Below are positions 31,936-54,025 of a stretch of DNA of 56,379 nt, one piece after another. Under the pieces are notes generated by a model. That model worked only from the letters and a program-made list of their open reading frames with translations. It did no database searches and was not told where the DNA came from. Numbering within the stretch: the first letter of the stretch is position 1; each line of letters starts with the position of its first letter. Location of the stretch: contig CALCQG010000168.1 in the NCBI GenBank assembly GCA_937897575.1, positions 1 through 56,379 of the forward strand, written 5' to 3'. Position numbers and translations under genes: made by a program. This stretch comes from an uncultured Synergistales bacterium. GTDB taxonomy: Bacteria > Synergistota > Synergistia > Synergistales > Aminobacteriaceae.

Positions 31936-31948
31936 AAAGAGCGACGCT

Positions 31949-34652: not shown

Positions 34653-34700
34653 TGTTCTGCCTCCAAGGGTACGTTGCCCTCTATGATTGATCGGAACCCT

Positions 34701-36856: not shown

Positions 36857-36876
36857 GACAACTTCTCTATCTCATA

Positions 36877-39351
36877 CTACAGACGCGTGACTTTGAGCAC
36901 GTCGCACCGCAGGCAACGGCATGTCTCATGAATCATCTGTTCTTCCGTCAACCCCTCTTCTATTTCATCGAAACAGACCTCTCTGTTGCAGACAGGGACA
37001 GACTTCATCACGGCTCGTTTTGACGGGGTCTCGTCCACCGGTTTGGAGAGCGAACGTACGTAGGTGACCCTATCGACAACTTGTCCGTCACCACCAAGGT
37101 ATCTGTCGATGGATGAAGCCGCCTGTTTACCTCCGTTGACGGCGCGAACTACGGAATCAGGACCTGTGATACAGTCACCACCGGCGAAGAGATACGGGAT
37201 ATTCGTATTCCCATCGTAGGTCGCAGCGAATGCATTACCGCGGCGTTCAATTCTTTCCTCCAGTTTTTCCTGGAAGGAGTCATCCAAGCTCTGACCTATG
37301 GCAACAATGACAAAGTCCGCGTCCACTTCCATGGTTTGAGAATCATCGCAGACCGGTGCGAAGCGCCCCTCCTTGTTGAAGACGGAGAGACACTTTCTGA
37401 ACACAACGCTTTTCACGCCATTGGAATCTCCCTTGATCTCCATAGGGCTCCAGCTGCAGTTCACTTCAGCGTCCTCCGAACAACACTCCTGTACTTCCCA
37501 TTCGTGAGCCGGCATTTCATCAAGCTTTTCCAAGCAGTAGAGGCCCACTTTTTCCGCCCCAAGCCGTATGGCGCTCCGGGCGCAATCAATTGCCACGTTG
37601 CCTCCCCCGACAACGATCACGGACTTCCCTTTCAAGTCGATCTGCTCACCAAGGTTAATGCTTCTCAGGAAGCGTACTCCGGAGAGGACATTGGGATACT
37701 CCTCTCCTGGAATCCCAAGTTTTCGCTCTCCATGGGAGCCGACTCCCATATAGACCGCAACAAACCCCATATCCCTCAGGGATTCGAGCGTAAAATCCAC
37801 TCCGAGTTTCTTGTTTGTTTCAAACTTGACCCCCATGGATCTGTAGACATCAAGCTCTTTCTCAAATATCTCCCGGGGCAGTCTATACGCAGGAAGCCCA
37901 AGAACCAGCATGCCACCAATCTTCGAGGTCTCTTCGAAAACTGTCACGCTGTACCCCTTCTTCTGGAGATAGAACGCGCAGGAGAGCCCGGATGGGCCCG
38001 AACCGATCACAGCGATCTTCTTCCCGTTCGATTTTGCCACCTCCGGGACTGGAAGCACGCCGTTTTGCTTAAGAAGCACGTCCGTGATAAAACGTTTCAC
38101 CCCGTTAATGGCGATCGGTTCGTCGATCTTCACCCTGTTGCACAGATCCTCGCAGGGGTGGTTACATACCCTGCCGCAGGCCAGAACAAGCGGGTTTTCC
38201 GCCTGAATAACCCTGTATGCCTCTTCGTATCGCTTCTGTCGTGCCAGATCAAGATAAATGGGGACTGGGACATTGGAAGGGCATGCATTCTGGCAGGTAT
38301 AGCGCATACAGTGCACCGGAGCCTTGGGATCGTGTCGTTCGTAGAGACACTCCGTGCAGTAGAGACACTCCTTGATATGATCGTATCTCCTGTCTCTGGC
38401 CTTTTTCAGCCACATGGAGTCTGCGATGAGCGGTCTGGCCAATGCGACCATATCCGCTCTCCCGGACTCGATGACCTCGTTTGCAAATTTTGGATCTCCA
38501 AGCTTTCCTACTGTTACGACCGGCACATTGACATGTTTTTTGATATCCTCGGCCAGGTATACGTTCGGGCCATCCGGGTATTCGATTCCAGGTTTCCCCC
38601 GCTGGTCACTGTACCCCTTCACAGGCGCATCATCAAAACGGACCCCCGCAGAGACATCCATGCAGTCAACACCGTTTGCCACCAGCTCTTTGGCGAAAAT
38701 ACGGCTCTGGACAATAGTGTTACCTCCCACGACGAACTCTTCGGCACTGATCCTGGCAAAGACGGGATAGTCGGGGCCCACCAACGCTCGAACACGTTTT
38801 AATATCTCAAGGTGGATGAACATTCGGCCGTACACGTCGCCTCCGAATTCATCGGTACGCGTGTTCGTCCTTCTTGAGATGAAATCCGCCATGGTATACG
38901 TGTGGGCATAATGGAGTTCCAGAACGTCGAACCCCGCCTTGACCGCCCGCTCGGCACCGGCGACGAAGTCATCGATTATTCCGTAGCAGTCTGCATTCGT
39001 CAGCTCATCGATCTTGACGCCGGCACCATAAATGGAGTGGGCTATCTGAAGGCCGATCAGGCAGTTCTCCTGATGGACCGCTGCTACCAGACGATTCAGG
39101 CCGGCAATATGTTCGTCGGAGCTCACCTGCAATCTTTGTCCCGCGTGGATGTATTTCGAACTTACGCTCGTATGCTCGGTCATGATGAGCCCCACGCCGG
39201 AACGAGCCCGATCGACGTAGTGTTTGATGGTATCTGGAGAGACGAAACCGCCCGGCGCCGCCGAATTCGTGAACATAGGCGACATGATGACTCTATTGGG
39301 GATCGTGAGACGATTAATCGTTATTGGAGAAAAAAGATTCGGTCTGTCCAC
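36877..39351 (-). CDS. Old-yellow-enzyme (NADH:flavin oxidoreductase) domain fused to a GltD/PreT-like Fe-S/FAD module
   Basis: NRVIMSPM, AGFDVLELHYAHTY, NTRTDEFGG, ARPLIAD, CLYCTEC..C; then CQNACP, CGRVCNHPCEDLCNR, GSGPSG, GGGNVAIDCAR, AGGD and CRCLRC. Confidence 0.85.
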   Translation of the reverse strand: MDRPNLFSPITINRLTIPNRVIMSPMFTNSAAPGGFVSPDTIKHYVDRARSGVGLIMTEHTSVSSKYIHAGQRLQVSSDEHIAGLNRLVAAVHQENCLIGLQIAHSIYGAGVKIDELTNADCYGIIDDFVAGAERAVKAGFDVLELHYAHTYTMADFISRRTNTRTDEFGGDVYGRMFIHLEILKRVRALVGPDYPVFARISAEEFVVGGNTIVQSRIFAKELVANGVDCMDVSAGVRFDDAPVKGYSDQRGKPGIEYPDGPNVYLAEDIKKHVNVPVVTVGKLGDPKFANEVIESGRADMVALARPLIADSMWLKKARDRRYDHIKECLYCTECLYERHDPKAPVHCMRYTCQNACPSNVPVPIYLDLARQKRYEEAYRVIQAENPLVLACGRVCNHPCEDLCNRVKIDEPIAINGVKRFITDVLLKQNGVLPVPEVAKSNGKKIAVIGSGPSGLSCAFYLQKKGYSVTVFEETSKIGGMLVLGLPAYRLPREIFEKELDVYRSMGVKFETNKKLGVDFTLESLRDMGFVAVYMGVGSHGERKLGIPGEEYPNVLSGVRFLRSINLGEQIDLKGKSVIVVGGGNVAIDCARSAIRLGAEKVGLYCLEKLDEMPAHEWEVQECCSEDAEVNCSWSPMEIKGDSNGVKSVVFRKCLSVFNKEGRFAPVCDDSQTMEVDADFVIVAIGQSLDDSFQEKLEERIERRGNAFAATYDGNTNIPYLFAGGDCITGPDSVVRAVNGGKQAASSIDRYLGGDGQVVDRVTYVRSLSKPVDETPSKRAVMKSVPVCNREVCFDEIEEGLTEEQMIHETCRCLRCDVLKVTRL

Positions 39352-39381
39352 TGTGCCTTCATCCTTCCTGCTAGGTTGTGT

Positions 39382-39864
39382 TTAGGTCTTGATACCTTTG
39401 TGCCTTATTTTTTGCGCGGCCAAGTGGACCGCATCATAAAACTGAAGGTACCCGGTGCATCGGCAGAGATGTCCGGAGAGCTCCTCCATGATTTCCTGCT
39501 TTGTGGGATTCTCATACTTATCAAGCAGGTATTTCGCGCTCAGAATGACCCCGGGGGTACAAAAACCGCACTGCACCGCGCCGGCTTCGATAAAGGCCTC
39601 TTGTATGGGGTGTAGTTCGCCGTTGTCAGCGAGGCCTTCTATGGTAAGAATCTCACGACCGTTGGCCGTCATCACGGGGATGATACAGGAGTTTACCGGC
39701 AGGCCGTCCAAAAGCACCGTACAAGCACCGCACTCCCCCTCTCCGCACCCTTTTTTCGCTCCCGTCAGATGTAAATCCTTGCGAAGGACGTCCAGCAGCG
39801 ATTTCGAAGGATCGACTTCAATGTGTACCGGCTTTCCATTAATTGTGCATGCGAAGTTCTGCAT
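39382..39864 (-). CDS. Xanthine dehydrogenase family [2Fe-2S] subunit
   Basis: GCGEGECGACTV, QCGFCTPG and LCRCTGY motifs. Confidence 0.93.
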   Translation of the reverse strand: MQNFACTINGKPVHIEVDPSKSLLDVLRKDLHLTGAKKGCGEGECGACTVLLDGLPVNSCIIPVMTANGREILTIEGLADNGELHPIQEAFIEAGAVQCGFCTPGVILSAKYLLDKYENPTKQEIMEELSGHLCRCTGYLQFYDAVHLAAQKIRHKGIKT

Positions 39865-39879
39865 GGTCGTACTTCCCTC

Positions 39880-40749
39880 CTATCCTATCTGCTCCACGGC
39901 CTTGATGAGCGCGCGCTCGACAATGTCCTTCACGAGAGACTTCCTGTATTCTCCCGATCCGCGAACTTTAGAATCTCTCGGCTGGGCCTCCCGCTCGGCC
40001 AATTGTGCTGCAGCGCCAAGAGCGCTCAGATCGTCGACATGTTTGCCGATGAGCGAACTTTCTGCTCTTTTCGTCCTGAAAGGCACGACTGCAACGGGGG
40101 AAGTTACAATACGAGCCTCTGTGATCGTTCCATCCCGGGCAACAACCATGACGGCCGCATTGACAACCGGGAGGGCCATGGCATCCCGCGGTGCCATCCT
40201 GACGTATCCCGTGCCGTATCTTCCCGCGGGCTTCGACACGTAGATTTCCGTTATTAACTCTCTTGAAGGATCAACACTGCTTTTACCGACGCCTTTGAAC
40301 AGATTCTCGATATCCTCGGTCCTTTTTCCCGATGCGCTTATGATCATGCATTTCGCATTCATCGCCACAAGGGGGACAACTGCATCTGCGGCCGGCTGTG
40401 CGCTAACGATATTGCCCCCTAATGTGCCGATGTTTCGAATCTGCGGGGAACCGACGTTCCGGCAGCCATCGGCAAGTGCAACGAAACAACTCTTCACCGT
40501 TTCGTGCGCAGCGACCTCGGCATGAGTGAGAGCGGCTCCGAGTATCATTCGTTTGTCATCGCTCTCAAAGTGCTTCAGTTCTTCGATCAATGAGATGTCG
40601 ACAAGCGTTTCTGCCTGCGCCTTTCCCTCTTTTAGCCATAGGAAAAGATCCGTTCCTCCCGCAAGCACTCGCGCTTTTCCTTCATGTTCAACAAGTAGGG
40701 CAATGCACTCCTCTATGGTCTTAGGAAATAGCTGCTGTTTTATTCTCAT
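39880..40749 (-). CDS. Xanthine dehydrogenase family FAD-binding subunit
   Basis: ATG at 40749 after GGAGG; AGGTDL, GSPQIRNIGTLGGN and SGEYR motifs. Confidence 0.92.
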   Translation of the reverse strand: MRIKQQLFPKTIEECIALLVEHEGKARVLAGGTDLFLWLKEGKAQAETLVDISLIEELKHFESDDKRMILGAALTHAEVAAHETVKSCFVALADGCRNVGSPQIRNIGTLGGNIVSAQPAADAVVPLVAMNAKCMIISASGKRTEDIENLFKGVGKSSVDPSRELITEIYVSKPAGRYGTGYVRMAPRDAMALPVVNAAVMVVARDGTITEARIVTSPVAVVPFRTKRAESSLIGKHVDDLSALGAAAQLAEREAQPRDSKVRGSGEYRKSLVKDIVERALIKAVEQIG

Positions 40750-42661
40750 CCTTGCCCCTCCTCCCCAAAGAACTCTGAAGCATATACAGTGCAACGAACA
40801 GACCCAGACCAACGAAGTCCGATATCGTCTCAGGGTACATGAGCAATACGCCTGCGGCCAGGAGAAGAATTCGTTTCACGATTCCAATCTCCGTCTTCAG
40901 GTAGCCTTCAATGCCGGAGCACAACGCGTATACACCTAAAACACCCGTACACATGATCCACAGGCTATACACGCTGAAATTGGAGGGGAGAATCATCATC
41001 TTAGGCTGGAAAACGAACATGAAAGGAACGAGGAAAGAGGTCAGTCCGATGAAACAGGCCTTCCAACCGACTCGAGCCGCATCTGCACCTGCTATGCCTG
41101 CAGCAGCATATGATGCAACGGCGACAGGGGGGGTGATGGCGGAAAGCGTTGAAAAATAGACGACGAACATATGCGCCTCAAGGGGTTGAAGTCCAAGCTC
41201 ATACAGAGACGGAATGCAGAGTGCTGCCGTCAAGGTGTATGCAGCGGCCACAGGCATCCCCATCCCAAGAAGTGTGCAAATAAGAGCGGTCAATAACAAT
41301 GCGGGGAGAAGCTTGCCTCCACCGATGCTCAGTATGAGACTGGCGAGTTTTCCGCTGAGGCCTGTTGTCATCAGTCCAGCGATGACACAGCCCGCCACGG
41401 CGCAGGACAGGGAGACGATGATCGAAGAGAGCGCCCCATCCTCAAGGGCTTTGATAATGGTCTGCAACGACATCCGTGTCGATTTCCGCAGCGCCGCTGT
41501 CACTATGACGGCGATAATGCCGACGAATGCCGACAGAGAAGCCGTGTATCCGCGCATCAGCATGACCACGAGAACCAGTATCGGGAGCAGAAATATGCCG
41601 CCCTCCTTGAGGGTCTTCATCGCGTTAGGCAGATCCTTCTGTTCGAGTCCCTGCAAGTTGCGTTTCTTCGCCCTGAAATGCACCACGAGCAGAAGGGCGA
41701 GATAGTACAGAACACCGGGGAATGCCGCAGCGAGCGCAATCGTCCGGTAGGGGATTCCTGCCATCTCCACCATGAGAAATGCAGCTGTTCCCATGATAGG
41801 AGGCATTATTCCGCCACCAGTGGCGGCAACGGCATTGATCGCTCCGGCAAACTCGGAGTCGTACCCCGAACGTTTCATCATCGGTATCGTGAAGGATCCG
41901 GTCGTTACGACGTTTGCCGTCGGACTGCCATTGATCATGCCGAACAGTCCGCTGGTGACGATCGCAACCTTTCCCGCGCCACCGGCGTAGCGTCCTGCTA
42001 CGGCCATGGAGAACTTGTAGAAGAAATCGCCAGCGCCGGAAAGGGCAAAGAAGGAGCCGAAGAGGACGAACATGAACACGTACGTCGATGCTGCGACCAG
42101 TGGCGATGAGAATATGCCGTTGATAGTGAAGACGACCTGGTCAAGCAGATCTACTGGCAACAGACGTCTGTGGTAGAGCGTACCAGGAAGCAGGTGACCG
42201 AAAAATGCATAGGCAAGGAAGATCAGCCCTATCAGAGGGAGGATGTACCCCATGGCGCGCCTCGTCAAACAGAACACGAGGACGAGTATGGTGATCCCGA
42301 TGACAATATCCGGCATCGACAGAGGGTCTACTTGAGGCCATCGGGTGATGAATCTGGCCATATTCATGAAAAAGTACACACCTGTCGCCATCGCAGCACC
42401 GCCAATTACATAGTCGCGTACTGGGATGCGCGTCCGATCGCTGCTGGCAAAAGGAGTATACATGAGCGATGCGAGAATAAGAATAAACGTCAGGTGAATG
42501 CTGTAATGCAGCATCGGTTGCACTGTGAGGAACGTAGCCTGGGCAAGTTGATAGAGCGACATGACGACTGCGATCACGCGCACGATCTGCTTGTCCGTTC
42601 CAGAAAGTTTTCTTTTCGCACCTTGCTCTTTCAGCTCTTTGAGTTTCACGTTCAGCACCAT
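40721..42661 (-). CDS. TRAP transporter fused 4TM/12TM permease (TAXI type)
   Basis: GGAGKVA, NVVTTGSFTIPMMKR, GGGIMPPIMG, LGMGMP and ITPPVA motifs. Confidence 0.9.
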   Translation of the reverse strand: MVLNVKLKELKEQGAKRKLSGTDKQIVRVIAVVMSLYQLAQATFLTVQPMLHYSIHLTFILILASLMYTPFASSDRTRIPVRDYVIGGAAMATGVYFFMNMARFITRWPQVDPLSMPDIVIGITILVLVFCLTRRAMGYILPLIGLIFLAYAFFGHLLPGTLYHRRLLPVDLLDQVVFTINGIFSSPLVAASTYVFMFVLFGSFFALSGAGDFFYKFSMAVAGRYAGGAGKVAIVTSGLFGMINGSPTANVVTTGSFTIPMMKRSGYDSEFAGAINAVAATGGGIMPPIMGTAAFLMVEMAGIPYRTIALAAAFPGVLYYLALLLVVHFRAKKRNLQGLEQKDLPNAMKTLKEGGIFLLPILVLVVMLMRGYTASLSAFVGIIAVIVTAALRKSTRMSLQTIIKALEDGALSSIIVSLSCAVAGCVIAGLMTTGLSGKLASLILSIGGGKLLPALLLTALICTLLGMGMPVAAAYTLTAALCIPSLYELGLQPLEAHMFVVYFSTLSAITPPVAVASYAAAGIAGADAARVGWKACFIGLTSFLVPFMFVFQPKMMILPSNFSVYSLWIMCTGVLGVYALCSGIEGYLKTEIGIVKRILLLAAGVLLMYPETISDFVGLGLFVALYMLQSSLGRRGKDENKTAAIS

Positions 42662-42688
42662 CCTTATGGTTAATGGAAAACCTACGCG

Positions 42689-45001
42689 CTACTCGGTCCT
42701 GATGGGAATCCGCGGTGACTCGGCCGTCTCTTTCTGGACGGCCTTCAATGCCTGATAGACCTTCTCGGGGGTGATCGGCAGATCCGTTATCCGAATACCA
42801 CACGCATTCTCTATGGCATTCGCTATTGCAGGCGCCGTAGGGATGAGCGTGGGTTCTCCCACACCTTTCGCGCCGTACGGCCCGATCGGATCGTTGGTCT
42901 CGACGATGATGCTCTGAACTTCCGGCATATCGGCGATGGTCATGAGGGTGTACCCATGCAGCCCCTTGCTCAGCGGTTGTCCCTTATCGAACTGCATGTT
43001 CTCGTAGAGGCACCAACCGACTCCCTGCGCCACACCACCCGTGATTTGTCCCTGAAGCCCCAGGGTGTTTATTGCCTTTCCCACATCGTGCGCTGCGACT
43101 ACACGGAGCACCTTGACCTTGCCCGTAACAGTATCCACTTCGACTTCGACAGCGTGCGCTCCATAGGTGTATGCGCTGGAGTAATCTCCGTAGAACTCGC
43201 TGTCAGAGCCTTCTGTGGGTGGATCGTAGGTTATGTAGGCCGTCAACGGCACTCCGGCATTGCTCCGTATCGCTTTCTGCGCTACTTCTTTCAGAGAGAG
43301 TGTCAGATTCTCGTCTTCCGAGCTGTGTATCACTCCGTTCTCCATGGTAAGCGACTGAACAGGGTGTCCGGTCATATTCGCTGCCAGATCCAGAACCTGT
43401 GTCTTAACCTGCTGGGCGGCAAGCTGGACCGCTTTGCCTCCGACCGTTGTGACGCGACTCGAATATGTCCCGAGACAGAATGGGCTCACATCCGTATCGA
43501 TTGGCATGAGGGTTATGGTATCGATCGGTACCCCCAGCGTCTCAGCAGCAATCTGTGCAAAAACAGTCTTCGAACCCTGTCCTAAATCTGCTTCGCCGGA
43601 AAAGACAAATACATTGCCGTCCTCATGAATGCGAATCATGGCGGATGAGCCATCAAACTTCTCGCCACTCCGATTTCCAGAGACATGAGTCATGCACGCC
43701 ACACCTATGCCGCGCCGAATCCGACCGCCTTGGTCGACGGCGGGGAGACGGTCTCTTTTGATCGCCTCCGAGGCTTTTTCGACGCACTCAGACAATCCGC
43801 AACTTCGTATCTTCCATTTATGAAGGGTGACGTCTCCCTGTCGGATAGCGTTTTTCAGACGCACCTCCACCGGGTCAAGGCCGATCTCTCTGCAGCACAT
43901 ATCTATAAAGGATTCCAGGGCAAAGTGCATCTGACTGTTGCCATAGCCCCGAAAACCACTTGTAGGGATGAGGTTCGTATAAACAAGATAGGCATCCGCT
44001 TTGCTTGATTTAAAACGATAAAGACAGTCGGTTCTCATGGCCATATTTAGGAGAACCTTGGGAGCGGCCCAAGAGTAGGCACCGTTGTCCGCAATGATTT
44101 TCGATTCTTTGCAGACCATCGTGCCGTCTTTCATCATTCCAAGCTTCACGTGCATGCGAGGCGCAACTCTGGGACGTGTCGTCAACTGTTCTTCTTCCCG
44201 AGTGAGCACTATCTTTACCGGTTGTCCCGCTTTCTGCGCCAGAATCGCCGCGATAGGATGAAAATTTCTCAGCCATATCTTCGCGCCAAATCCTCCTCCT
44301 ACGTAGGGGGATTTCAACGTAATCCGGCTGGGGTCAATTCCGAGAGCACGGGCCAACTCGTTACGACCTTGGAACATGGCCTGGAGCCCCGTCCACATGG
44401 TCAGGCGACCGTCGCTGCCCCACCAAGCCACTGCGCCGAAGGGCTCGAGATACAAACCGGAAACTCGGTGCGTACTGAATTCATGCTCGAAAACATAGTC
44501 GCACGATGCGAAATCCGCCTCAACATTCCCCCTGCTCAGGTGGTACTCTTTTGCTATGTTATTTTTAGCGTTCTCGTGGACCAGAGGGGCTCCCGGCTTC
44601 ATCGCAGTCTCAGGATCATCCACAACAGGGAGAAGCTCATATTCGACCTCAATACGGCTTATGGCCTCTTCGGCAATATCCTCTGTGTCGGCCGCAACAG
44701 CCGCTACTTCGTCGCCGACATATCGAACCTTGTCGACAGCTAAGACATCCACATCAGGAATCTCCATGCCGAACTTGCGCCCCGGGGTGTCCTTTGCAGT
44801 GATGATGGCTTTTACACCAGGTACTGCCTCCGCTTTGGATGTATCGATGTGAAGGATCCGGGCATGGGGATGAGGCGACCGAAGGATCTTCCCATAGAGC
44901 AGATTCGGGAACTCCATGTCGTCAAGATATTTGGCTGTTCCGGTGACCTTCTCTTTAGCATCGATAAAAACCTGTTTAACTCCAAGATTAGTCGACTTCA
45001 T
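42689..45001 (-). CDS. Xanthine dehydrogenase family molybdopterin-binding (large) subunit
   Basis: KVTGTAKY, GGGFGAK, FRGYG, DLGQG, GTYSSRVT, GGVAQG and AKGVGEP (catalytic Glu) motifs. Confidence 0.93.
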   Translation of the reverse strand: MKSTNLGVKQVFIDAKEKVTGTAKYLDDMEFPNLLYGKILRSPHPHARILHIDTSKAEAVPGVKAIITAKDTPGRKFGMEIPDVDVLAVDKVRYVGDEVAAVAADTEDIAEEAISRIEVEYELLPVVDDPETAMKPGAPLVHENAKNNIAKEYHLSRGNVEADFASCDYVFEHEFSTHRVSGLYLEPFGAVAWWGSDGRLTMWTGLQAMFQGRNELARALGIDPSRITLKSPYVGGGFGAKIWLRNFHPIAAILAQKAGQPVKIVLTREEEQLTTRPRVAPRMHVKLGMMKDGTMVCKESKIIADNGAYSWAAPKVLLNMAMRTDCLYRFKSSKADAYLVYTNLIPTSGFRGYGNSQMHFALESFIDMCCREIGLDPVEVRLKNAIRQGDVTLHKWKIRSCGLSECVEKASEAIKRDRLPAVDQGGRIRRGIGVACMTHVSGNRSGEKFDGSSAMIRIHEDGNVFVFSGEADLGQGSKTVFAQIAAETLGVPIDTITLMPIDTDVSPFCLGTYSSRVTTVGGKAVQLAAQQVKTQVLDLAANMTGHPVQSLTMENGVIHSSEDENLTLSLKEVAQKAIRSNAGVPLTAYITYDPPTEGSDSEFYGDYSSAYTYGAHAVEVEVDTVTGKVKVLRVVAAHDVGKAINTLGLQGQITGGVAQGVGWCLYENMQFDKGQPLSKGLHGYTLMTIADMPEVQSIIVETNDPIGPYGAKGVGEPTLIPTAPAIANAIENACGIRITDLPITPEKVYQALKAVQKETAESPRIPIRTE

Positions 45002-45019
45002 CGTGAAAAACCTCCCACA

Positions 45020-45913
45020 CTATTCTCGATCTTTGTATGAGGACAATTTTTCCAGGGAGAAAGGCATTGCTTTTCCTCGCCATCGCAGCTCCATACGTCC
45101 AGCTACAAATAAAACCGCACCCTCGATCATATCCCGCGAGCATAACTCAGAAGCCCTTTCAGCACCGGACATCAGCGCGTGCGCTATCGCTTCGTCACTC
45201 ATATTCCCTATTGCACGCGTTACGCTTAATCCTCGAATGTCAGTGTCATAATCTATCTCTTCGGCTAAACACTTTTGCACTGCGGGGTCTTGGACATCGC
45301 ATGAGTTGGCAATGGAAGTCGCGGCGGCATCAGCCAACGCGCTGCTTTTTGCCATAACTGTCACGGCCGATGCCACCCCCCGTGTAAGACTCCGCCCTCC
45401 GAAACCACTTGTCGCGACCCCAGTGATACCGCTTTCGTACGGAATGACCAATCTGTACGTAGGAATACCGTTAGCGAGATCAGAGACAATGCCAACCCGA
45501 ATCTCTTTTCTTGTTTGCGACAACCTGAAGGCTATGTCTCCACCGTTATTCGCCATGGCATATTCCGCGCCGGCCTGGGCCATTTCTCCTACCGCCAAAT
45601 CTGAAAGTGTTCCCGCAACAGCTGCCATAGCAGTAAAATCGTTTTCTCCGAGCGCCCGGACCGCATGAATCATCATCTGAAGGACATGAGGATACGCCGT
45701 ATCTTTTCCCTCATGAAACGGGACCATCTTCTTTGCTGCTGGCAGCATAGTCGTTAACGTTTCAAAATGGTGCAAGACGCTTTTCGCGCCGAGGTAGGCA
45801 AGAGCCGTATCCGGACCACCATTGCGCGCAGCCTCAAGGACCATGGTGACAGGGCCATACTCTAATAATAGAGCGCCCTCTTTCAGCACTGTAGCGTACA
45901 GGCGAATATCCAT
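45020..45913 (-). CDS. UPF0280 / ApbE-like protein (putative cytoplasmic flavin transferase)
   Basis: YGP, TAMAAVAG, NNGGDIA, ATSGFGGRSLTRG and ADAAATSIAN motifs; no signal peptide. Confidence 0.85.
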   Translation of the reverse strand: MDIRLYATVLKEGALLLEYGPVTMVLEAARNGGPDTALAYLGAKSVLHHFETLTTMLPAAKKMVPFHEGKDTAYPHVLQMMIHAVRALGENDFTAMAAVAGTLSDLAVGEMAQAGAEYAMANNGGDIAFRLSQTRKEIRVGIVSDLANGIPTYRLVIPYESGITGVATSGFGGRSLTRGVASAVTVMAKSSALADAAATSIANSCDVQDPAVQKCLAEEIDYDTDIRGLSVTRAIGNMSDEAIAHALMSGAERASELCSRDMIEGAVLFVAGRMELRWRGKAMPFSLEKLSSYKDRE

Positions 45914-45923
45914 CTCTGCTTTG

Positions 45924-45961
45924 AAAAAGCATGAGTACGCACTTCAAGTGCGTACTCATGC
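45924..45961 (-). terminator. Intra-cluster terminator-like hairpin after the TAXI binding-protein gene
   Basis: GCATGAGTACGCACTT / AAGTGCGTACTCATGC perfect inverted repeat followed by TTTTT on the minus strand. Confidence 0.8.
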
Positions 45962-45976
45962 GCTTTTCGCGTGTAC

Positions 45977-46975
45977 TTACTTCGCGCTCTTCTCCGCAAA
46001 GTATTTTTCCGCACCCGGGTGGAGCGGTGCGGGGGCTACATCGTGCAGAGATTCGAGCGTCAGATCTTTCAGAGAGCTATGGATACTCTTGAAATACTCG
46101 AAGTTCTCGTCGATCGCCTTAACAACCGCGTACGCGGCATCGTCCGAAAGATCGGCGTTCGTGAATAGGACAACGGTCGCACCGACGGTGGGGACATCCG
46201 CTGTCAGGAAGTTGTACTTATCCTTTGGGATCACCGTTGAATAGGTTCCCAATTTGTCATTCACCGTCTTCTGAGCACCCTCCGACATCCCAAACAGATT
46301 CAAGCCCACGTTCGTCGAAATATCGACGACATGGCTGGAAGGGACCTGGATAACGTTGCTGTAGGCCTGGATCTTGCCATCTCTCATCAGATCGAGCGAG
46401 GCCCCCATGGACATGAAGTCCGCATTTCCGCCCCACTTTTTAAGGTCATCGTAGGTTATACCGTAGGCAGCGAGCACTTCGCGTCCAACGATTTCCATAA
46501 AGGAGTCCTTCGTATTGAAATTCACCTTCAAGGGGAACTGCTTTTCCTTCAGCTGTTCGAAGCTTTCCACCCCGCTGTCCCGACGTACGATGAAATGTTC
46601 CACTGCCTCTTTGTAGAGGACACAGAGTGCACGGAGATTGTCATACTTCTCTTTGAAGGGAGGAACACCTTCCATCCCCATCTTCAGAAGCTGCGCGTGG
46701 GCTATACCAAGCTCAATCTTTCCTCGGGAGACCAGTGCAAGGTTAGCCGCTTCCTGTCCGACTTCATACGCCGTGTTCGAACCAGGGAAGCTTCTGCGTA
46801 TAACCTCTCCTACACCTTCGCCGATCGCCGCCCATGCTCCGCCGATCGAACCACCGCATATGGACAGGTTGTACTTCTCAGCGGCTTGCCCCACCGCGGC
46901 GCTCATGCATCCCACACCCACAAACACGGCAAGAACAGACAACATTACGAACTTCACGCAAATCTTTTTCATCAT
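45977..46975 (-). CDS. TAXI family TRAP solute-binding protein
   Basis: Signal peptide; GGSIGGAW, YKEAVEH, IPKDKY and C-terminal APLHPGAEKYF. Confidence 0.9.
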   Translation of the reverse strand: MMKKICVKFVMLSVLAVFVGVGCMSAAVGQAAEKYNLSICGGSIGGAWAAIGEGVGEVIRRSFPGSNTAYEVGQEAANLALVSRGKIELGIAHAQLLKMGMEGVPPFKEKYDNLRALCVLYKEAVEHFIVRRDSGVESFEQLKEKQFPLKVNFNTKDSFMEIVGREVLAAYGITYDDLKKWGGNADFMSMGASLDLMRDGKIQAYSNVIQVPSSHVVDISTNVGLNLFGMSEGAQKTVNDKLGTYSTVIPKDKYNFLTADVPTVGATVVLFTNADLSDDAAYAVVKAIDENFEYFKSIHSSLKDLTLESLHDVAPAPLHPGAEKYFAEKSAK

Positions 46976-47121
46976 TTCGACCCCTCTCTTTTGTCAAAAG
47001 AAATCACCACTTTGAATCGTCAGCGCAACCATTCGGGACAATAAACTGAGGGTTTTAAACGGCATCGGTGGACTGTTTGCCTTACCCGCCCCCTTTCATT
47101 GAATAAAAAGAGATTCGCGGA

Positions 47122-48648
47122 TCAGTCTTTTTTCTTCGCGTAGTGTTGGTATCGTCCCTCTTCATAAACTTCATCGAGTGTTCGCATTGCATGAACATGT
47201 CCCTTGATTTTCCTGTACTCATCCACTGTCATCGTATATTCGATCGGCGCGACGACGGCAGGCGAAGGAGTATACGTAAACGGCCTATCCACCATCTTTT
47301 CCACATCGGCAAGGAACGTGATTCCCCCGCCGGGCATCAGGAACGTAGGGGCTCCTGCTATTGAAAGAACCGCATCTCCTCTATGGACTGCCTTCGTAAT
47401 CTGTATGGGATCCGGGGTTACGCCTGCTCTTGCACTGCCTCCCACTCCTGCGTAATACATCGCAGACACTCTGCTGTCCTCGCAAGAATCAGCGGCCATT
47501 TTCCTGAATTCCTCAAGTTCTTTTGGTATTGAGATCTGGAAAGGCTGCCCTTTTTCGTCAACTTCAAAAAGAGCAATCTGCCGCCACGTTGTTTCGGCGA
47601 CAAGAATCTTCAGCCCAGGATGCGCAATGGACATGTCAATATCTTTGATTGCCTCAATCGGATTTTGAATCGCGGTTCCGCCCCAACCATCCCCATGATC
47701 GAAGAAATACCGCCCTGGAGTGGCAAATCTGCCGACAGGAGTGACCCCGCTATAGGCCTTCAATTCGGCTCCTGCCGGATGCTTTGTGAAGAGTCCTGTA
47801 ATATGGTGATCGATAATGATCGCTTCATCCACAAGAGGCGCAAGGGATTTTGCAAACAGGCCACAGCAAGCTCCACCGCATCCTACGCGCATTTTTTCAT
47901 CCACGATGCCGTTGATGACCGGATGATGGCCGACTTGGATCTCCAACGTCGCACCTTTTTCAACAGTGAATTTTATCCGCTCCTGATTACCTATGGCGGA
48001 CATAGCTTTCACAACGTACATGCCATCCGGGCCTTTGACCTTGTTCACCCCGCCAAGTATGAGAATCTGTGATCCGTACTGTTCCACCGATACGGAGCCC
48101 ACCGGTTTCCCTTCGTACTTGACAGCGGCCCCCTCGTCGCCGATATGGGCGTTCGTGTCGATCTTCACCATCATGGAACTGTAGGAAATAGGCGCCTCTG
48201 TCACAACCGTGACGACATCGATATCGTCCCTCTTCTGCGTCACAATATAAGGTGCCGGTTTATAATCCGGATAGCCCGCTCCTGCGCCAACAGCCGAGAT
48301 GACCGGATAGGAGATCGCAACTTGTTTCCTGGAGGGTTCGCCATCGCTGGGGATCTGCAGAGGCCGATTCCGGACAAGTTCCCCTGAATGATTCGAAAAA
48401 CGCTTGCAGGCGCCATACTTCCCCTCAGGGATGAGGCACTTCACGCCGCAATTCTTACAGAGGAGCTTCACCTCTGTTTCAGCAGTCTCATGTATCGCAT
48501 CAAATTTGCAGTATTTTACGCAGGAGAGACAGTTCACGCAGTCACCGGCAAGGTATGCTTTCTTATCCCGCATCTCCAAGGCGCCCATGGGGCACACCTT
48601 CGTGCATACCGTGCAGCCAACGCATTTTCCCTTATCGACGGATATCAT
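47122..48648 (-). CDS. 6-hydroxynicotinate reductase (Hnr) homologue
   Basis: N-terminal 2x[4Fe-4S]; CxxCxxxC..GAC.R; GAG..YPDYKPAPYIV, VTVVTEAPISYS, MRVGCG, DHHITGL, TPGRYF, GGSARAGV, PGGGI and VAPIEYTM match the Eubacterium barkeri Hnr family as I recall it. Confidence 0.88.
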   Translation of the reverse strand: MISVDKGKCVGCTVCTKVCPMGALEMRDKKAYLAGDCVNCLSCVKYCKFDAIHETAETEVKLLCKNCGVKCLIPEGKYGACKRFSNHSGELVRNRPLQIPSDGEPSRKQVAISYPVISAVGAGAGYPDYKPAPYIVTQKRDDIDVVTVVTEAPISYSSMMVKIDTNAHIGDEGAAVKYEGKPVGSVSVEQYGSQILILGGVNKVKGPDGMYVVKAMSAIGNQERIKFTVEKGATLEIQVGHHPVINGIVDEKMRVGCGGACCGLFAKSLAPLVDEAIIIDHHITGLFTKHPAGAELKAYSGVTPVGRFATPGRYFFDHGDGWGGTAIQNPIEAIKDIDMSIAHPGLKILVAETTWRQIALFEVDEKGQPFQISIPKELEEFRKMAADSCEDSRVSAMYYAGVGGSARAGVTPDPIQITKAVHRGDAVLSIAGAPTFLMPGGGITFLADVEKMVDRPFTYTPSPAVVAPIEYTMTVDEYRKIKGHVHAMRTLDEVYEEGRYQHYAKKKD

Positions 48649-48700
48649 TTTATTCTCTCCTTCCGGGCTCCCATCAAAGCGGTATGAAACATTTTGGAAG

Positions 48701-49951
48701 TTATATCTTCCCCGCTTTTCTAGCCCCAAGAATCGTCAGCAGGCGCTGCTGCTCGTTGTTTACGATCATGACTCCTTCGTCGACGCCCATGCCCGGCTTC
48801 CCCGCCATGGCGAACGGTTTGGTTGCAACTGCGAGATTGACGCAGACCAAGGCGGACTTGTCCGTCTCGTTGCATGTCCCGCCCTGGTATGCCAGAACAC
48901 CGTGTTTCTTACAGTACAGCACAGCCTCGACGATATTGTTAATGCCTCCGAGGTCAATGGTCTTTACCTGAACCATATCTGCGCCCTTCGCGTCGACCCA
49001 CTGAACGATCTCTTCATAGGTGTTCGCATATTCGTCGATGATCAGCTTCAGCTTTGAGCCGGCCTCGTCCAATTTTCTGCGAAGATACTTCATCCCCTCG
49101 AGCTGTTTGTCATTGCTCTTGAGGTCGATGGGCATTTCTATGAACACCTCGTACGGCGAGCACGCTTCTTCGACTTTAAGGAGGTACTCCACAACCTTGT
49201 CAAGATCGTCATTGAAGGCCTTTCCCATACACCCGTACACGTCATACCGCATCACTGGCTTATAGTCCGGGGTGCCAATCTCTTGAATGCGGTTTTTCAC
49301 CCATTTCACCCATTTCAGGAAGATTTCGCCGTCCTTGCCGAGTTTTTCCTCGACATTATTGATAAGACCGTGGGGCATCATACCTACTTTCTTGAGGATC
49401 ATCTTGTCGACGTTTGTGTACCGTTCGTCGCCAGACTGAGCGTTGATCCGGACAGGCGTGAGGTCAAGAGGGAGCTTGTACTCCTTCATGATGACTTCAG
49501 TCATGGTGCACTTGTTCGTCTTGGCAACCGTCTCAAGCACTGCTTGGGTCACACCGTACCGTATAGAAGCGGGCAGCTGATGACCGTCGAAGAGCTTCTT
49601 ATCGAACTGCTCCGCTGTAGCCTTGAACTCGGTGATATCCTTTCCCTCAAAATAGGGAACAACATATTTCTCAATGACATCCATCAGGGCTTTCCCAGTG
49701 TTCGGAACCTCCCTACCACCGCTCGCCGCATACTGGGCAACAGAACAGTCACCGTACGCTATCTCGCCGTTTTCCAGAACGAACATGACGGATACTGCCA
49801 CTCCCGGCTGGCGTATCGTTTTGAAACCCGCAGTCAGAGGTTCTCCCTTGTATATGAAACCGTCAGATTTGGCTCCAGCCTTTATAGCCTCTTTGTCATC
49901 CATATAGAACCCCGTCATACACTCACAGCACAGTACTTTTTTCACCTTCAT
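48701..49951 (-). CDS. Methylaspartate ammonia-lyase homologue with an altered substrate pocket
   Basis: GFYMDD, GDC..QY, AQSGDERY, PHGLINN, DVYG, IE.P, DEYANT, QVKTIDLGG, YQGGTCNET and KPGMGVDEG motifs. Confidence 0.9.
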   Translation of the reverse strand: MKVKKVLCCECMTGFYMDDKEAIKAGAKSDGFIYKGEPLTAGFKTIRQPGVAVSVMFVLENGEIAYGDCSVAQYAASGGREVPNTGKALMDVIEKYVVPYFEGKDITEFKATAEQFDKKLFDGHQLPASIRYGVTQAVLETVAKTNKCTMTEVIMKEYKLPLDLTPVRINAQSGDERYTNVDKMILKKVGMMPHGLINNVEEKLGKDGEIFLKWVKWVKNRIQEIGTPDYKPVMRYDVYGCMGKAFNDDLDKVVEYLLKVEEACSPYEVFIEMPIDLKSNDKQLEGMKYLRRKLDEAGSKLKLIIDEYANTYEEIVQWVDAKGADMVQVKTIDLGGINNIVEAVLYCKKHGVLAYQGGTCNETDKSALVCVNLAVATKPFAMAGKPGMGVDEGVMIVNNEQQRLLTILGARKAGKI

Positions 49952-50009
49952 CGTATATTCCCTCCGTTAATTGTTTAGATTTATATTTGGGCCCTCTTGT
50001 GCAGTTTTT

Positions 50010-51359
50010 CTATCGAAGAACTTTACCGTCCTTTGCCACGAGCTTCCCGCCGACATAAACCCTCTCTACGTTTTTGATCTCGGGGTAGGACGTGACAAGA
50101 ATGTCCGCTCCGAACCCTTTTTTCAGCTGGCCTAGATTTGGCGCAATCAACGGCAGAGCCTCTGTCACTTTTGTGGTTCCCTGAGCAACCGCCTTCGCGA
50201 AACCAACCAATTTCTTCTCCAAGCTGGCATGCTGGATTCCTTCCAACATGGAATCGCTCGCCCCAGCTGCAAAATCCGTCGAAATGATGTCCACCAAGTC
50301 GTTTTCATAGAAGGCAAAGAGGTTCTCGGGAGTCGCAACAAGCTTTTTGGCACCGAAGGGATCATGCACTGCTGCGTCGAGAATGACGCCGGGGAACTGC
50401 TTGAGGTACTTTCCATTTTCAACGCACTCATCCTTTGTGAAAAGATAGTTCGAGTGACAAGCGATAAGTGTGTTCAGCCCCATCTTCGCGATTTCATGGA
50501 CGATATATTTTGACGTGGGTGCATTGTGGATCATCAACGGCATGTTATATTTCTTTGCAAGATCTGCCGCCTCACGATAACCGTCCAATGCGACCTTGAC
50601 GGAAGAGAGGGTCGTCTTGTATACGATATCCCTCGTCTCCTCAGGTGTCAGGAAATCGTCCAGTTTATGTTCTTTTAGAGCTGCGGCAACACGGTCTCTG
50701 TCATAGTAACTTTCTTCTATGTATCGTCCAAGCACGGACAACTTCATTGCCCGTGCCTGAAGGTAGTCAATATCCTTTCCTTTCAGAGCTTTAACGGCTC
50801 TCGGAATATAAAGATAATCCTGACCGCCACCACCCAGAGTATGCCCTCCACCGACCTCTCCTATACACACAGCGCCCTCGGACAGCATTTTCTCGACTGT
50901 CATGGTGCGGTGTTCTTCTTTCAATCCTTTTCCGTCACAGAGATCAGCCGCCTTGAGATTAATCGGTGCGTGCGTCGTAGCAGCCTTTATGCGAATGGGA
51001 TGATGCCGCTGCGTCTCTTTGACCTCATCCATCGTGACGAAACCGTCGATATTAAGAACCGTCGTATGTCCCTGCAGAAGGCTGCGATCAAGGTGGTTCA
51101 TAATAAAATCGCGTCCGTAGTTCTCGCAACCACTGGCGAACATCGGGCCAAAGGTGATGCCGTGTTGGTGATGATTGATCATTCCGGGCAGAACACACTT
51201 TCCGGTACAATCAATGACCTCCTCCGCATATGCATCGAGCGACGGGTCCAGACTCTGCTCCACGCCCACTATCGTGTCATCAACGACGACGACTGCGCCG
51301 TTTTCGTACATCGTCTTCCCGTCTCCCGTAACCACTACGCCGTTCTTGAAAATCTTCAC
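50010..51359 (-). CDS. Metal-dependent amidohydrolase (putative lactamase)
   Basis: PGMINHHQHG (HxH), GEVG, IHNAP, CHSN, STDF and GQLKKGFGADI amidohydrolase-fold motifs. Confidence 0.82.
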   Translation of the reverse strand: MKIFKNGVVVTGDGKTMYENGAVVVVDDTIVGVEQSLDPSLDAYAEEVIDCTGKCVLPGMINHHQHGITFGPMFASGCENYGRDFIMNHLDRSLLQGHTTVLNIDGFVTMDEVKETQRHHPIRIKAATTHAPINLKAADLCDGKGLKEEHRTMTVEKMLSEGAVCIGEVGGGHTLGGGGQDYLYIPRAVKALKGKDIDYLQARAMKLSVLGRYIEESYYDRDRVAAALKEHKLDDFLTPEETRDIVYKTTLSSVKVALDGYREAADLAKKYNMPLMIHNAPTSKYIVHEIAKMGLNTLIACHSNYLFTKDECVENGKYLKQFPGVILDAAVHDPFGAKKLVATPENLFAFYENDLVDIISTDFAAGASDSMLEGIQHASLEKKLVGFAKAVAQGTTKVTEALPLIAPNLGQLKKGFGADILVTSYPEIKNVERVYVGGKLVAKDGKVLR

Positions 51360-51378
51360 GCCAGGTCCCTCCCGTGTT

Positions 51379-52242
51379 CTAGAATGTAAAATTCGTCACA
51401 GCCCGTCGCGGGTCAAAGCAACATCCAGTTCTCAGCGAAACGACGCGTATACCACTCGCCCGTTGTGGTCCCACCTTGACAAAAGTCCCTAAAACGGTCG
51501 TGTCACCTCCGAGGCCTAACGCACCGACTGCGGATTGGTTCACGCCTTGCGTTATCCGTTGTTCAATCTCAGATTGCTGGGAGAAATTCCCCTTTGCCAT
51601 CGCTTCAAGACTAAGAGAAGCTGCCTCAAGATGCGAACGCCCTATGCCGTATGCAAGAACACACGGTTGGCAGCCCAGCATCTTCGCCCCCTCTGTTCCC
51701 CAGGCGATCATTTCATTGATCACGGTATCAGCCGAGTGTTTGTGAAAAACGCGCAATGTTTTTCCACGAATTTCGGGGCCTCCTCCGTACATGAGCACCG
51801 TAAGGGCAATCGAGCCACCTTCAACACGACGGATTTGAACAGGTGCCATCGCGAGGGCACCTGAGTCCTCATAGAGTCCTCTGGACTGAGATAGACGCTC
51901 CAGATCGCCTCCACGGACAGCCATTGGTCTGCCGGGCAGTTTCCGAAGCCCCGAAGCAATTCCGTCTTCCACAGCTTTCAGAAATCCCGCCGGGACAGCG
52001 GCAGCGTCGCCTATTTCAAGCAGCACATGAGGAATACCGGTATCGTCGCAAAGAGGAAGTTGCATCTTCTCCGCCATTTCGGCGTTTTGGAGAATGGTCT
52101 CGAGCACCCACTTAGCGTGCTCATTCGATTCCGATGCGTGCGCTCGCTGGTATGCTTCTTTCTGATCCTCTCCGAAAGAGGTGCTCGCCTTCACAAGAGT
52201 TTCGGCTGTCTTTACCGTGACGTCCTTAAGCGTATTCATCAC
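51379..52242 (-). CDS. Class I fumarate hydratase / tartrate dehydratase-like alpha subunit
   Basis: PLCDDTG, GGGPE, GCQP, GALGLGG and terminal GCC Fe-S ligand motifs. Confidence 0.85.
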   Translation of the reverse strand: MMNTLKDVTVKTAETLVKASTSFGEDQKEAYQRAHASESNEHAKWVLETILQNAEMAEKMQLPLCDDTGIPHVLLEIGDAAAVPAGFLKAVEDGIASGLRKLPGRPMAVRGGDLERLSQSRGLYEDSGALAMAPVQIRRVEGGSIALTVLMYGGGPEIRGKTLRVFHKHSADTVINEMIAWGTEGAKMLGCQPCVLAYGIGRSHLEAASLSLEAMAKGNFSQQSEIEQRITQGVNQSAVGALGLGGDTTVLGTFVKVGPQRASGIRVVSLRTGCCFDPRRAVTNFTF

Positions 52243-52757
52243 TTGTCACCCTTATCATCGAATATTGACTGACCGTGTGCGATCGCCACGATAGCAGAGA
52301 AATTTTTCACCTGAAGGACATGCATCGCCTCCATCCCTTCCTCTTCGAAAGCGACGATTTTTTTGTTCTGAATCGTGGAGGTGAGCAGTGCGGAGACGGG
52401 GGGATTAACGGCAAAAATCGAATTATACTCTTTCAACACATCCACTGTGGTTTGAGAGAGCCTGCCCTTTCCGATGTGAATTTTCACGCCGGCTTTGGAG
52501 AGCATTGGGATGGAACCTTCGATATCGAGTTTGTTGCTTGAAGTCGGACCTATGCCAGCAGGACTCACAGCAGTGTGAAATATTATGCTGCCATTCAGGT
52601 TGATTCCGTACTTCTCCAGCTCGTCTTTTTCAATCATTTGTACTAATTTTGGCAGAGCAGCATCACGCCCCGTATAAATCGAACCTGTTATTTCCAGTTT
52701 ATCGTAAATTTTCAGTGAGCTTATGACGGAATCAGCGACCGGGGTTAAAATCAGCAT
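52239..52757 (-). CDS. Class I fumarate hydratase-like beta subunit
   Basis: TGRDAA, GPTSS, IGKG and EEGMEA motifs. Confidence 0.85.
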   Translation of the reverse strand: MLILTPVADSVISSLKIYDKLEITGSIYTGRDAALPKLVQMIEKDELEKYGINLNGSIIFHTAVSPAGIGPTSSNKLDIEGSIPMLSKAGVKIHIGKGRLSQTTVDVLKEYNSIFAVNPPVSALLTSTIQNKKIVAFEEEGMEAMHVLQVKNFSAIVAIAHGQSIFDDKGDK

Positions 52758-52802
52758 TTAAAGTCCCTTCTTTCCATGAAAGTAAACAAAAAACAAGCTT
52801 AA

Positions 52803-52817
52803 TTCCAATATATGGAA
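52803..52817. promoter_or_regulatory. Putative IclR-family operator
   Basis: TTCCA-ATATA-TGGAA dyad between the promoter and the first gene of the cluster. Confidence 0.6.
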
Positions 52818-52842
52818 GTTGATTTCTTAGTTTGGTAATGCG

Positions 52843-52872
52843 ATTATATTATTCCACGAGCATTTCTGTCAA
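52843..52872 (-). promoter_or_regulatory. sigma70 promoter of the catabolic cluster
   Basis: Minus strand TTGACA-18 nt-TATAAT, both hexamers perfect consensus. Confidence 0.8.
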
Positions 52873-53097
52873 GAAACCAGCCGTGGATACACGAAAACAT
52901 GTACAGCCGAGTACCTTACAATGTTTTTCTTCAGCGGATACCACACTGTTTTCGCTTTGCCGTAATTGAAAGCGCCATCGTAGCCAAAGGGAAATTGATA
53001 TAATAACAGCTATAACTCAATGATTACGATTGATTGAGAGCGTACCTCATGACCCTGTTCGCTTATATTTGCCCGTGTACAGTACGAGGAGTGGGAG

Positions 53098-53895
53098 ATG
53101 TACATGAAGAACAAGCGTTCGCCGGAAGGCACGAATTCATTAAAAAAAGGGCTCTCCGTGCTCTCCTGTTTCACGTGGGAGAACACATCGCTTACACTGA
53201 CTGAAATAGCAAGATGTCTTGATCTTCCGATGCCTACAGCATCGAGGATAGCAAGGGCACTCGAAGAAGAGGGTTTTTTGGAGAGAGACAGGAACACAAA
53301 AGCCTATCATTTGGGTTTTAAATGCTATCTCTTTGGTTCCATGGCTAAAAAAACGGGAGGCCTTCGTAATCTTGTTCTTCCATACATGCAGGATCTTAAA
53401 GAGCGTTTTAACGAGACGGTGAATTTTTATGTTCGCGAAGGCTTTATGAGGACCTGCTACGAGCAGGTCGAGAGCTCTTGGGATTTAAAGCGTACTGCGA
53501 AACTCGGAGCGAAATTTACACTTTGGGCGGGTGCAGCTGGGCGCTGCTTCTTGGCTTTTATGAAAGAACAAGACGTCGCGTTGATTCTTGAGGAAGCGGA
53601 AGCTCTGACGGAAAACACGATTCTGAATAAATCAACCGTCTACGCCCTCTTGGAAAAAATTCGTATTGAAGGGTTCTCCACCAGCAACTCCGAAAGAGAG
53701 CGCGGCGTATACTCTATTGCGGTCCCCATCATGAACGACGAACAACAGGTGGTGGGATGTATGACCCTCTCGGGGCCCACGGTCCGTTTCACCGATGACG
53801 TGACCCGGGCGATGATACCCGCCATAAAGGAGGCCTGCCTGCTTATCTCCTTGAAGCTGGGGGCACCCGTGGACTTCATCGGCTTCCTGAGGTAG
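53098..53895 (+). CDS. IclR family transcriptional regulator
   Basis: SLKKGLSVL...LTEIA...TASRI...GFLER HTH; ETVNF, GAAGRCFLA and GVYSIAVPI...SGPTVRF effector domain. Confidence 0.92.
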   Translation: MYMKNKRSPEGTNSLKKGLSVLSCFTWENTSLTLTEIARCLDLPMPTASRIARALEEEGFLERDRNTKAYHLGFKCYLFGSMAKKTGGLRNLVLPYMQDLKERFNETVNFYVREGFMRTCYEQVESSWDLKRTAKLGAKFTLWAGAAGRCFLAFMKEQDVALILEEAEALTENTILNKSTVYALLEKIRIEGFSTSNSERERGVYSIAVPIMNDEQQVVGCMTLSGPTVRFTDDVTRAMIPAIKEACLLISLKLGAPVDFIGFLR

Positions 53896-53947
53896 GGTTC
53901 ATTCCCGAAGAGTCGTCCGGAGAGGTACCCATACCGTTCATGACATC

Positions 53948-53994
53948 AATGAGGGGCACGCCGCAGAGAAAAGGCATGCCCCTCGATGTTTTTA
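53948..53994 (+). terminator. Hairpin between convergent iclR and the DAACS gene
   Basis: GAGGGGCACGCC...GGCATGCCCCTC imperfect stem followed by a T-rich tail. Confidence 0.5.
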
Positions 53995-54025
53995 TGCTGG
54001 ATCAGAATCTACTTCCGATGAACTG

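Follow-up and report, generated by a model that had tools for sequence, protein, structure and literature searches.

The window, a 56,379-nucleotide stretch from an uncultured Synergistales bacterium, encodes a methylaspartate ammonia-lyase (MAL) family protein with a rebuilt methyl pocket. The pocket and the gene neighbourhood indicate that this protein is likely to work in the manner of MAL on a larger 3-substituted aspartate. Judged by two features, the altered methyl pocket and the lack of glutamate mutase as a substrate source, it is very probably not the 3-methylaspartase of glutamate fermentation. The best reading, toward which we lean somewhat, is that it would deaminate 3-(2-carboxyethyl)aspartate in the anaerobic breakdown of quinolinate (pyridine-2,3-dicarboxylate). 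The literature searched, mostly outside subscription journals, yielded no description of such an enzyme or of an anaerobic quinolinate route.

Residues are numbered as in Clostridium tetanomorphum MAL, and signatures such as F/H/L or N/R/A give residues 170, 236 and 384. The 416-aa protein scored 482 bits against the TIGR01502 profile (cut-off 286.15) and matched both PF07476 and PF05034. HMMER aligned its residues 1–412 with the C. tetanomorphum chains 1KCZ, 3ZVI and 3ZVH, and residues 1–409 with the C. amalonaticus chain 1KKO, at 45–49% identity to the two enzymes; the top PDB sequence match was the engineered L384A mutant 3ZVI (443.1 bits, versus 440.2 for the wild type). An AlphaFold model (pLDDT 95.2) had the MAL-like capping domain and barrel of the enolase superfamily, with a TM score of 0.97 and an rmsd of 1.1 relative to 1KKO and TM scores of 0.94–0.97 across the C. 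tetanomorphum and C. amalonaticus structures. As originally predicted, the catalytic, metal-binding and substrate-binding residues are intact: the Mg ligands D238, E273 and D307, the catalytic residues K331, H194 and Q329, and Q73, Q172, T360 and C361 all aligned. These residues, Y356 and the fold are shared with 1KCZ and 1KKO; K386 and M389 were also kept. T360 and C361, which presumably act at the substrate alpha-carboxylate, were retained in 120 of the best 120 of 5954 homologs. Both are among the substrate hydrogen-bonding residues described in the available part of PMC7241714. The protein is thus a member of the MAL family with the MAL fold and a whole catalytic set.

The original prediction named F170N, L384A and a new arginine in the pocket, and alignment to the MAL structures confirmed all three, the arginine being H236R. 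Conservation was assessed in the best 120 of 5954 homologs (70–100% identity, the query included). N170 and R236 were each present in 120/120, and position 384 was A in 116, G in 2 and S in 2. Subfamily-wide changes beyond this triad were V191M, G274M, W309Y, R271F, A385G and P168R/K, together with an altered 70–85 loop (VQYSGAGGRD to AQYAASGGRE); A75, M191, M274 and Y309 were fixed in the same best 120. Among 41 variant loci, some representing one genome twice, R236 and A384 were each specified by four synonymous codons. We regard the triad as neither chance nor drift.

According to the available part of PMC7241714, the hydrophobic methyl pocket consists of F170, Y356 and L384, of which only Y356 is retained here (N170, Y356, A384). 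The same source gives a 1760-fold decrease in kcat on 3-methylaspartate for CaMAL L384A, and the conserved A384 therefore counts against methylaspartate being what the enzyme acts on in nature. Like engineered CtMAL-L384A (3ZVI), the natural enzyme has Ala at 384; unlike it, the natural enzyme also has Asn170 and Arg236. The substituents listed for CtMAL-L384A in the available part of PMC7586795 are alkyl, aryl, ether and thioether groups with no carboxyalkyl among them, so the case for a polar substituent rests on N170, R236 and context. The prediction of a larger polar C3 side chain such as carboxyethyl consequently survives in part. The pocket speaks strongly for a substituent other than methyl, but it is not the independent pointer to carboxyethyl that it was taken to be; that identity would follow from a strongly conserved, chemically coherent gene cluster.

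R236 lies two residues before D238 on model strand E233-237. Because the same spacing separates F170 from Q172 and Q329 from K331, its side chain should face inward. The alignment and model suggest no acidic partner at the inward strand positions. Muconate-lactonising-type enzymes often have an arginine two residues ahead of their first metal ligand; by analogy R236 may be structural. Compensation for R271F was also considered and was weakened by the finding that 16 of 70 H236 loci (duplicates included) lack R271 and yet lack R236. The available parts of PMC7241714 and bioRxiv 10.1101/583088 make no mention of H236.

Alignment and phylogeny with canonical MALs placed the variant in its own clade, apart from glutamate-mutase-linked MALs. 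In a 57-row quick tree this clade held 16 rows (SH-aLRT 98), and its sisters were soil-type H/R/S-A and N/R/S sequences (L076, L078, L090), P0123 and a Y170/H236/A384 group. One representative of a 50%-cluster library matched at 76%, the next best at 45–46%. The other full-length representatives, 66 of the 149 listed once 83 of other lengths had been set aside, included A384 in none, R236 in one and N170 in three. Nor are the substituted residues common in bona fide methylaspartases, as 52/52 glutamate-mutase-linked loci had F170/H236/L384. F170N, H236R, L384A, G274M, the altered 70–85 loop and the separate clade thus distinguish the variant from canonical MAL.

Other pocket classes were also observed. 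A second subfamily, on metagenome loci L077 and L079–L087, combines Y170/H236/A384 with Q329N, Y356M and M274; at L081, L083 and L086 its gene comes after one for a GntR/FCD regulator and lies next to TctC- or NMT1-type transporter genes, without glutamate mutase. The sister group at L076:1906-6393, L078:17-3281 and L090:1267-2499 has H170 or N170, R236, and S or A384. A class-V PLP enzyme (SufS-like) gene adjoins MAL in L076 and L078, and L076 also has variant-type FumAB, AFOR and a CoA-ligase fragment. P0123 is a distant relative (45%) with G170, R236, M274, Q384, V73 and A361, and the MAL-like representatives P0121–P0269 have varied pockets (H170, Q170, L170, Y170; H329). This variety suggests many uncharacterised MAL specificities among P0121–P0269, and several specificity classes, the N/R/A clade among them, would have gone unrecognised. 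The ‘methylaspartate ammonia-lyase’ equivalog appears to take in at least one large misannotated subfamily and the pocket classes H/R/S, Y/H/A and G/R/Q.

The variant gene lies within a low-GC island that holds the whole cluster (Table 1). The minus-strand order is fumarase-like beta and alpha, amidohydrolase, MAL, Hnr-like, TAXI, UPF0280-like, Mo-hydroxylase large subunit, TRAP permease, FAD subunit, 2Fe-2S subunit, OYE-GltD, yqeC, mocA, yqeB, citD, citE and citF; citC, citX and citG were not found among the island ORFs scanned, although citDEF is present. The Hnr-like ORF as called spans 47122-48729, the tabulated ATG start at 48687 being a guess. The PRK04334-like protein is presumably the one labelled UPF0280, and the annotated cluster of L062 has a hypothetical gene after Hnr that resembles the UPF0280-like gene by length alone. 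A dicarboxylate/amino acid:cation symporter gene (54026-55339) lies just past the island edge.

Table 1. Features of the variant MAL gene and its cluster in the window
Feature	Position	Strand	Basis or remark
Low-GC island	31900..54000		22 kb, 52.1% GC vs 62.3% genome-wide
IclR-family regulator, divergent	53098..53895	+	profile matches
Sigma-70 consensus 12/12, TTGACA-18-TATAAT, before first operon gene	52843..52872	-	pattern match only
Class I fumarase-like hydratase beta, divergent motifs	52239..52757	-	profiles, motif comparison
Class I fumarase-like hydratase alpha, CDDTG for CQDTG, YGGGPEIR for KGFGSEN	51379..52242	-	profiles, motifs
Amidohydrolase-superfamily protein, proposed lactam hydrolase	50010..51359	-	profiles; no enamidase match
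MAL-family ammonia-lyase, N170/R236/A384 subfamily	48701..49951	-	single ORF, 416 aa
Asn170 codon (F170N; methyl pocket, barrel strand 1)	49442..49444	-	alignment; homolog conservation
Arg235 codon (= H236R; two before Mg ligand D238)	49247..49249	-	alignment; homolog conservation; model strand
Ala383 codon (= L384A)	48803..48805	-	alignment; homolog conservation
6-Hydroxynicotinate reductase-like (Hnr-like) Fe-S protein	47122..48687	-	similarity to annotated Hnr
TAXI-TRAP solute-binding protein	45977..46975	-	profile, plasmid-protein comparison
PRK04334-like protein	45020..45913	-	profile
Xanthine-dehydrogenase-family molybdenum (Mo) hydroxylase, large subunit	42689..45001	-	profiles
Fused TRAP permease	40721..42661	-	TIGR02123 above cut-off
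Mo-hydroxylase FAD subunit	39880..40812	-	profiles
Mo-hydroxylase 2Fe-2S subunit	39382..39864	-	profiles
Old-yellow-enzyme (OYE) domain (HYAHTY) fused to GltD/DPD-type Fe-S flavin module, proposed ene-reductase	36877..39351	-	profiles
yqeC, mocA-like, yqeB: accessory genes for selenium/MCD molybdenum hydroxylase	34701..36856	-	profile
citD-citE-citF-like citrate/citramalate-type lyase, proposed homocitrate cleavage	31949..34652	-	profiles, trees

The Hnr-like protein shared 42% identity with an annotated 6-hydroxynicotinate reductase across 467 aa. A Mo-hydroxylase is paired with Hnr in the nicotinate pathway of Eubacterium barkeri, and the presence of both types of enzyme here points to a pyridine ring. 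The amidohydrolase has no close characterised relative, its Atlas clusters being generic amidohydrolases only, and its identification as an enamidase was rejected because none of its 10 PDB matches at E≤0.01 is an enamidase. This result, together with an OYE domain whose HxxHxY motif is intact, is most naturally read as complete reduction to a lactam, from which an amino acid is then released. A citramalate-type lyase needs a 2-substituted malate, which implies a 3-substituted aspartate as the substrate of MAL. Quinolinate was chosen because, among the pyridine acids considered, only the 2,3-dicarboxylate yields such a skeleton; dipicolinate, picolinate, and 2,4- and 2,5-pyridinedicarboxylate were ruled out, as their ring-opened products lack the aspartate skeleton.

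In the proposed route, quinolinate would be taken up by the TAXI-TRAP system and hydroxylated by the Mo-enzyme to 6-hydroxyquinolinate, which the Hnr-like protein would then reduce. The OYE would reduce the C2=C3 enamide to 6-oxopiperidine-2,3-dicarboxylate, and hydrolysis of this lactam would give 3-(2-carboxyethyl)aspartate. OYE reduction is a trans-addition; by Newman-projection reasoning it would produce a trans lactam, from which anti elimination after ring opening would give a fumarate-type alkene. The variant MAL would remove the C3 proton via K331, the enolate being held by Mg, H194 and Q329, and loss of ammonia would leave trans-homoaconitate; the N170/A384 cavity, close to R236, would accommodate the additional carboxylate. 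Hydration of trans-homoaconitate by the fumarase-like pair would give (S)-homocitrate, and a CitDEF- or CmlAB-type lyase would cleave the latter to acetate and 2-oxoglutarate. A fumarase-like hydratase followed by a citramalate-type lyase also lies downstream of canonical MAL, so that the second half would be the mesaconate/citramalate route with carboxyethyl replacing methyl. The hydratase motifs were shifted (CQDTG to CDDTG, KGFGSEN to GGGPEIR and PTTSGRMD to PTSSNKLD-like) in 6/6 variant-side sequences versus five canonical ones; by these motifs the hydratase has co-diverged with the variant MAL.

Depending on the genome, the cluster is closed by a CitDEF-type lyase or by one resembling the CmlAB citramalate lyase (9ERQ/9EVF), the proposed substrate being homocitrate rather than the citramalate of their known role. 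CitEF occupies this slot in the window, L010, L050, L051, L059 and L074, and lies beside OYE in L168 and L170. The unrelated CmlAB type was found in L008/L066 (E = 1.2e-143 for L066 versus 9ERQ) and L150; it occurs in G269, where the CitE search found none. The stretches covered in G011, G193, G227, G236 and G240 showed no lyase, although CitE occurs elsewhere in all five genomes. A 13-row tree hinted at a single dedicated ‘homocitrate lyase’ CitE clade, which was not upheld with 31 rows; in the larger tree the cluster-linked CitE proteins formed three separate lineages. Such polyphyletic proteins could be ordinary citrate lyases, as would suit an alternative that we consider possible but unlikely. 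In this alternative the same chemistry is applied to another 3-substituted aspartate, for example 3-(carboxymethyl)aspartate, converted via trans-aconitate to citrate, or a compound derived from a substituted quinolinate or another N-heteroaromatic diacid. Several clusters adjoin TctABC tricarboxylate transporter genes, aconitase-family genes are paired with the enzyme in L072, and the pocket alone does not fix the chain length. However, the Hnr-like reductase and Mo-hydroxylase imply a six-membered pyridone and with it a three-carbon side chain. A pyrrole, being electron-rich, serves poorly as a substrate for a Mo-hydroxylase, and a pyrimidine route needs more than one amidohydrolase.

Some loci depart from the cluster of the window. 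L072 and L139 encode N/R/S enzymes (75%) that fall inside the clade. In place of the amidohydrolase and Hnr, both loci carry PrpD, HacAB and a PrpB-like lyase. In L072:881-15116 the N/R/S enzyme is accompanied by TctA/TctC, PrpD, the HacAB-like hydratase, the PrpB-like lyase and variant FumAB, and the exit may possibly run from homoaconitate through homoisocitrate to glyoxylate and glutarate. No Mo-hydroxylase was found in the 20 kb of L074. These three loci may feed or drain the same tricarboxylate by other routes, or they may indicate a different substrate. In L008/L066 (42-18731), UbiD and UbiX replace the Mo-hydroxylase, and CmlAB, a Tct transporter and a pterin-binding methyltransferase-like gene are present. 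The closest solved chain for this UbiD is 7PDA, which we take to be phenazine-1-carboxylate decarboxylase. A UbiD-like 6-hydroxyquinolinate decarboxylase, for which the reverse reaction could not be shown, is described in the available part of PMC6644310, and the UbiD/UbiX replacement is in keeping with the quinolinate reading. Two OYE gene copies, one shorter (675 aa), flank the cluster in L001 (4821-6848 and 17704-20175).

The fermentation of nicotinate by E. barkeri employs a Mo-hydroxylase with Se/MCD accessory genes, an Hnr-type reductase and an amidohydrolase. Of these, the Mo-hydroxylase and, by similarity to annotated proteins, the Hnr-type reductase were found in the window at family level, whereas an enamidase (10 PDB matches) and the methyleneglutarate branch (22 ORFs scanned) were not found. 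In addition, the window cluster differs in having an OYE, in a nitrogen exit via a MAL-type lyase and in having no methyleneglutarate mutase branch. This resemblance, which extends to yqeB/yqeC, would suit nicotinate as the substrate, giving 2-(aminomethyl)glutarate after reduction and ring opening for the enzyme to deaminate to 2-methyleneglutarate; its carboxyethyl chain would suit R236 as well. We consider this improbable: T360 and C361 are invariant, 2-methyleneglutarate could not be used by the fumarase-like hydratase and citramalate-type lyase, and none of the 22 ORFs scanned belongs to the methyleneglutarate pathway. For quinolinate, the preferred substrate, 6-hydroxy intermediates are known from aerobic quinolinate and picolinate degradation in Alcaligenes, where Mo-enzyme 6-hydroxylation was shown for picolinate (available parts of PMC6644310 and bioRxiv 10.1101/530550). 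According to the same sources, Alcaligenes decarboxylates 6-hydroxyquinolinate and passes 6-hydroxypicolinate to a monooxygenase; the window route, in contrast, appears to reduce and hydrolyse the ring with both carboxyls kept.

Context was counted in 94 loci of 1.6 to 21 kb after removal of 8 identical ones; they comprise metagenome loci, five Clostridia loci and two of Synergistota, with most canonical Clostridia MALs outside, and many genomes are kin, so that neither locus nor genome counts are independent. Glutamate mutase was present at 52/57 F/H/L loci and 0/25 N/R/A loci, whereas an amidohydrolase or Hnr-like gene was present at 0/57 and 25/25, respectively; 12 loci with other signatures had neither. 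Thus, unlike canonical MAL, the variant is linked to ring-degradation genes and lacks glutamate mutase as a source of its substrate. We give very little credence to a conventional 3-methylaspartase (or aspartase) in which the substitutions are tolerated or compensated and 3-methylaspartate comes from another source: the protein passes the TIGR01502 equivalog cut-off, retains Y356 and every catalytic residue, has downstream fumarase and lyase genes of methylaspartate-route types, and R236 might offset R271F, but glutamate mutase was not found in G000 (96% complete), G193, G195 and five further genomes while positive controls (G209 and G236, where it lies beside both canonical MAL genes) were detected, L384A greatly reduces kcat in CaMAL, and H236 loci without R271 do without such compensation.

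A MAL above the cut-off was found in 20 of 268 genomes of the phylum, of which 19 carry the variant and two the canonical type; G236 has both, each in its own context. The variant MAL, the amidohydrolase and the Hnr-like gene occurred in the same 19/268 genomes, with one extra amidohydrolase fragment in G029. FumAB and the amidohydrolase, Hnr-like and UPF0280-like genes were kept in 11/11 loci from named genomes. The cluster was probably acquired sideways, because the amidohydrolase and Hnr-like gene occurred in 0/106 genomes of the same family. The gap between the MAL and Hnr-like genes is about 3 kb in G240:C6 (L053 10511-13805) and about 8 kb in G189:C11 (323263-331047).

The pathway around the variant MAL is probably new. 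Cluster bearers include Lutispora saccharofermentans m25, Cuneatibacter sp. NSJ-177 and a human gut metagenome contig (L073). Quinolinic acid is a neuroactive kynurenine-pathway metabolite. If the favoured reading holds, for which the balance is slightly positive, digester and gut anaerobes would carry out an undescribed complete fermentation of quinolinic acid to acetate, 2-oxoglutarate and ammonia, an anaerobic sink that is open to test. The enzyme would then be the first natural MAL-family member with a non-methyl, carboxylate-bearing substrate, and a natural C-N lyase for carboxyalkyl-substituted aspartates, beyond the listed scope of engineered L384A.

Among 366 plasmid records, the best E-value for the TAXI protein was to an A. 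aromaticum EbN1 protein (1e-42, 31% identity), and a small, biased tree placed the two together (support 80/80). The EbN1 protein is encoded in a UbiD/CoA-transferase cluster of the o-phthalate type (available part of PMC13040137); this link agrees weakly with the quinolinate reading. The L066 UbiD was 24% alike to that of EbN1. L157:3651-11870 encodes a TAXI-TRAP protein 50% like the EbN1 protein, near nadC (quinolinate phosphoribosyltransferase) with transposase remnants between. Relatives of the amidohydrolase (35%) occur on Agrobacterium/Rhizobium plasmids (L158:8980-19332 and L159:8980-19323) with quorum-sensing regulators, MmgE/PrpD, ornithine cyclodeaminase, TauD and ABC genes as neighbours; our guess is that these loci serve opine catabolism with a lactamase.
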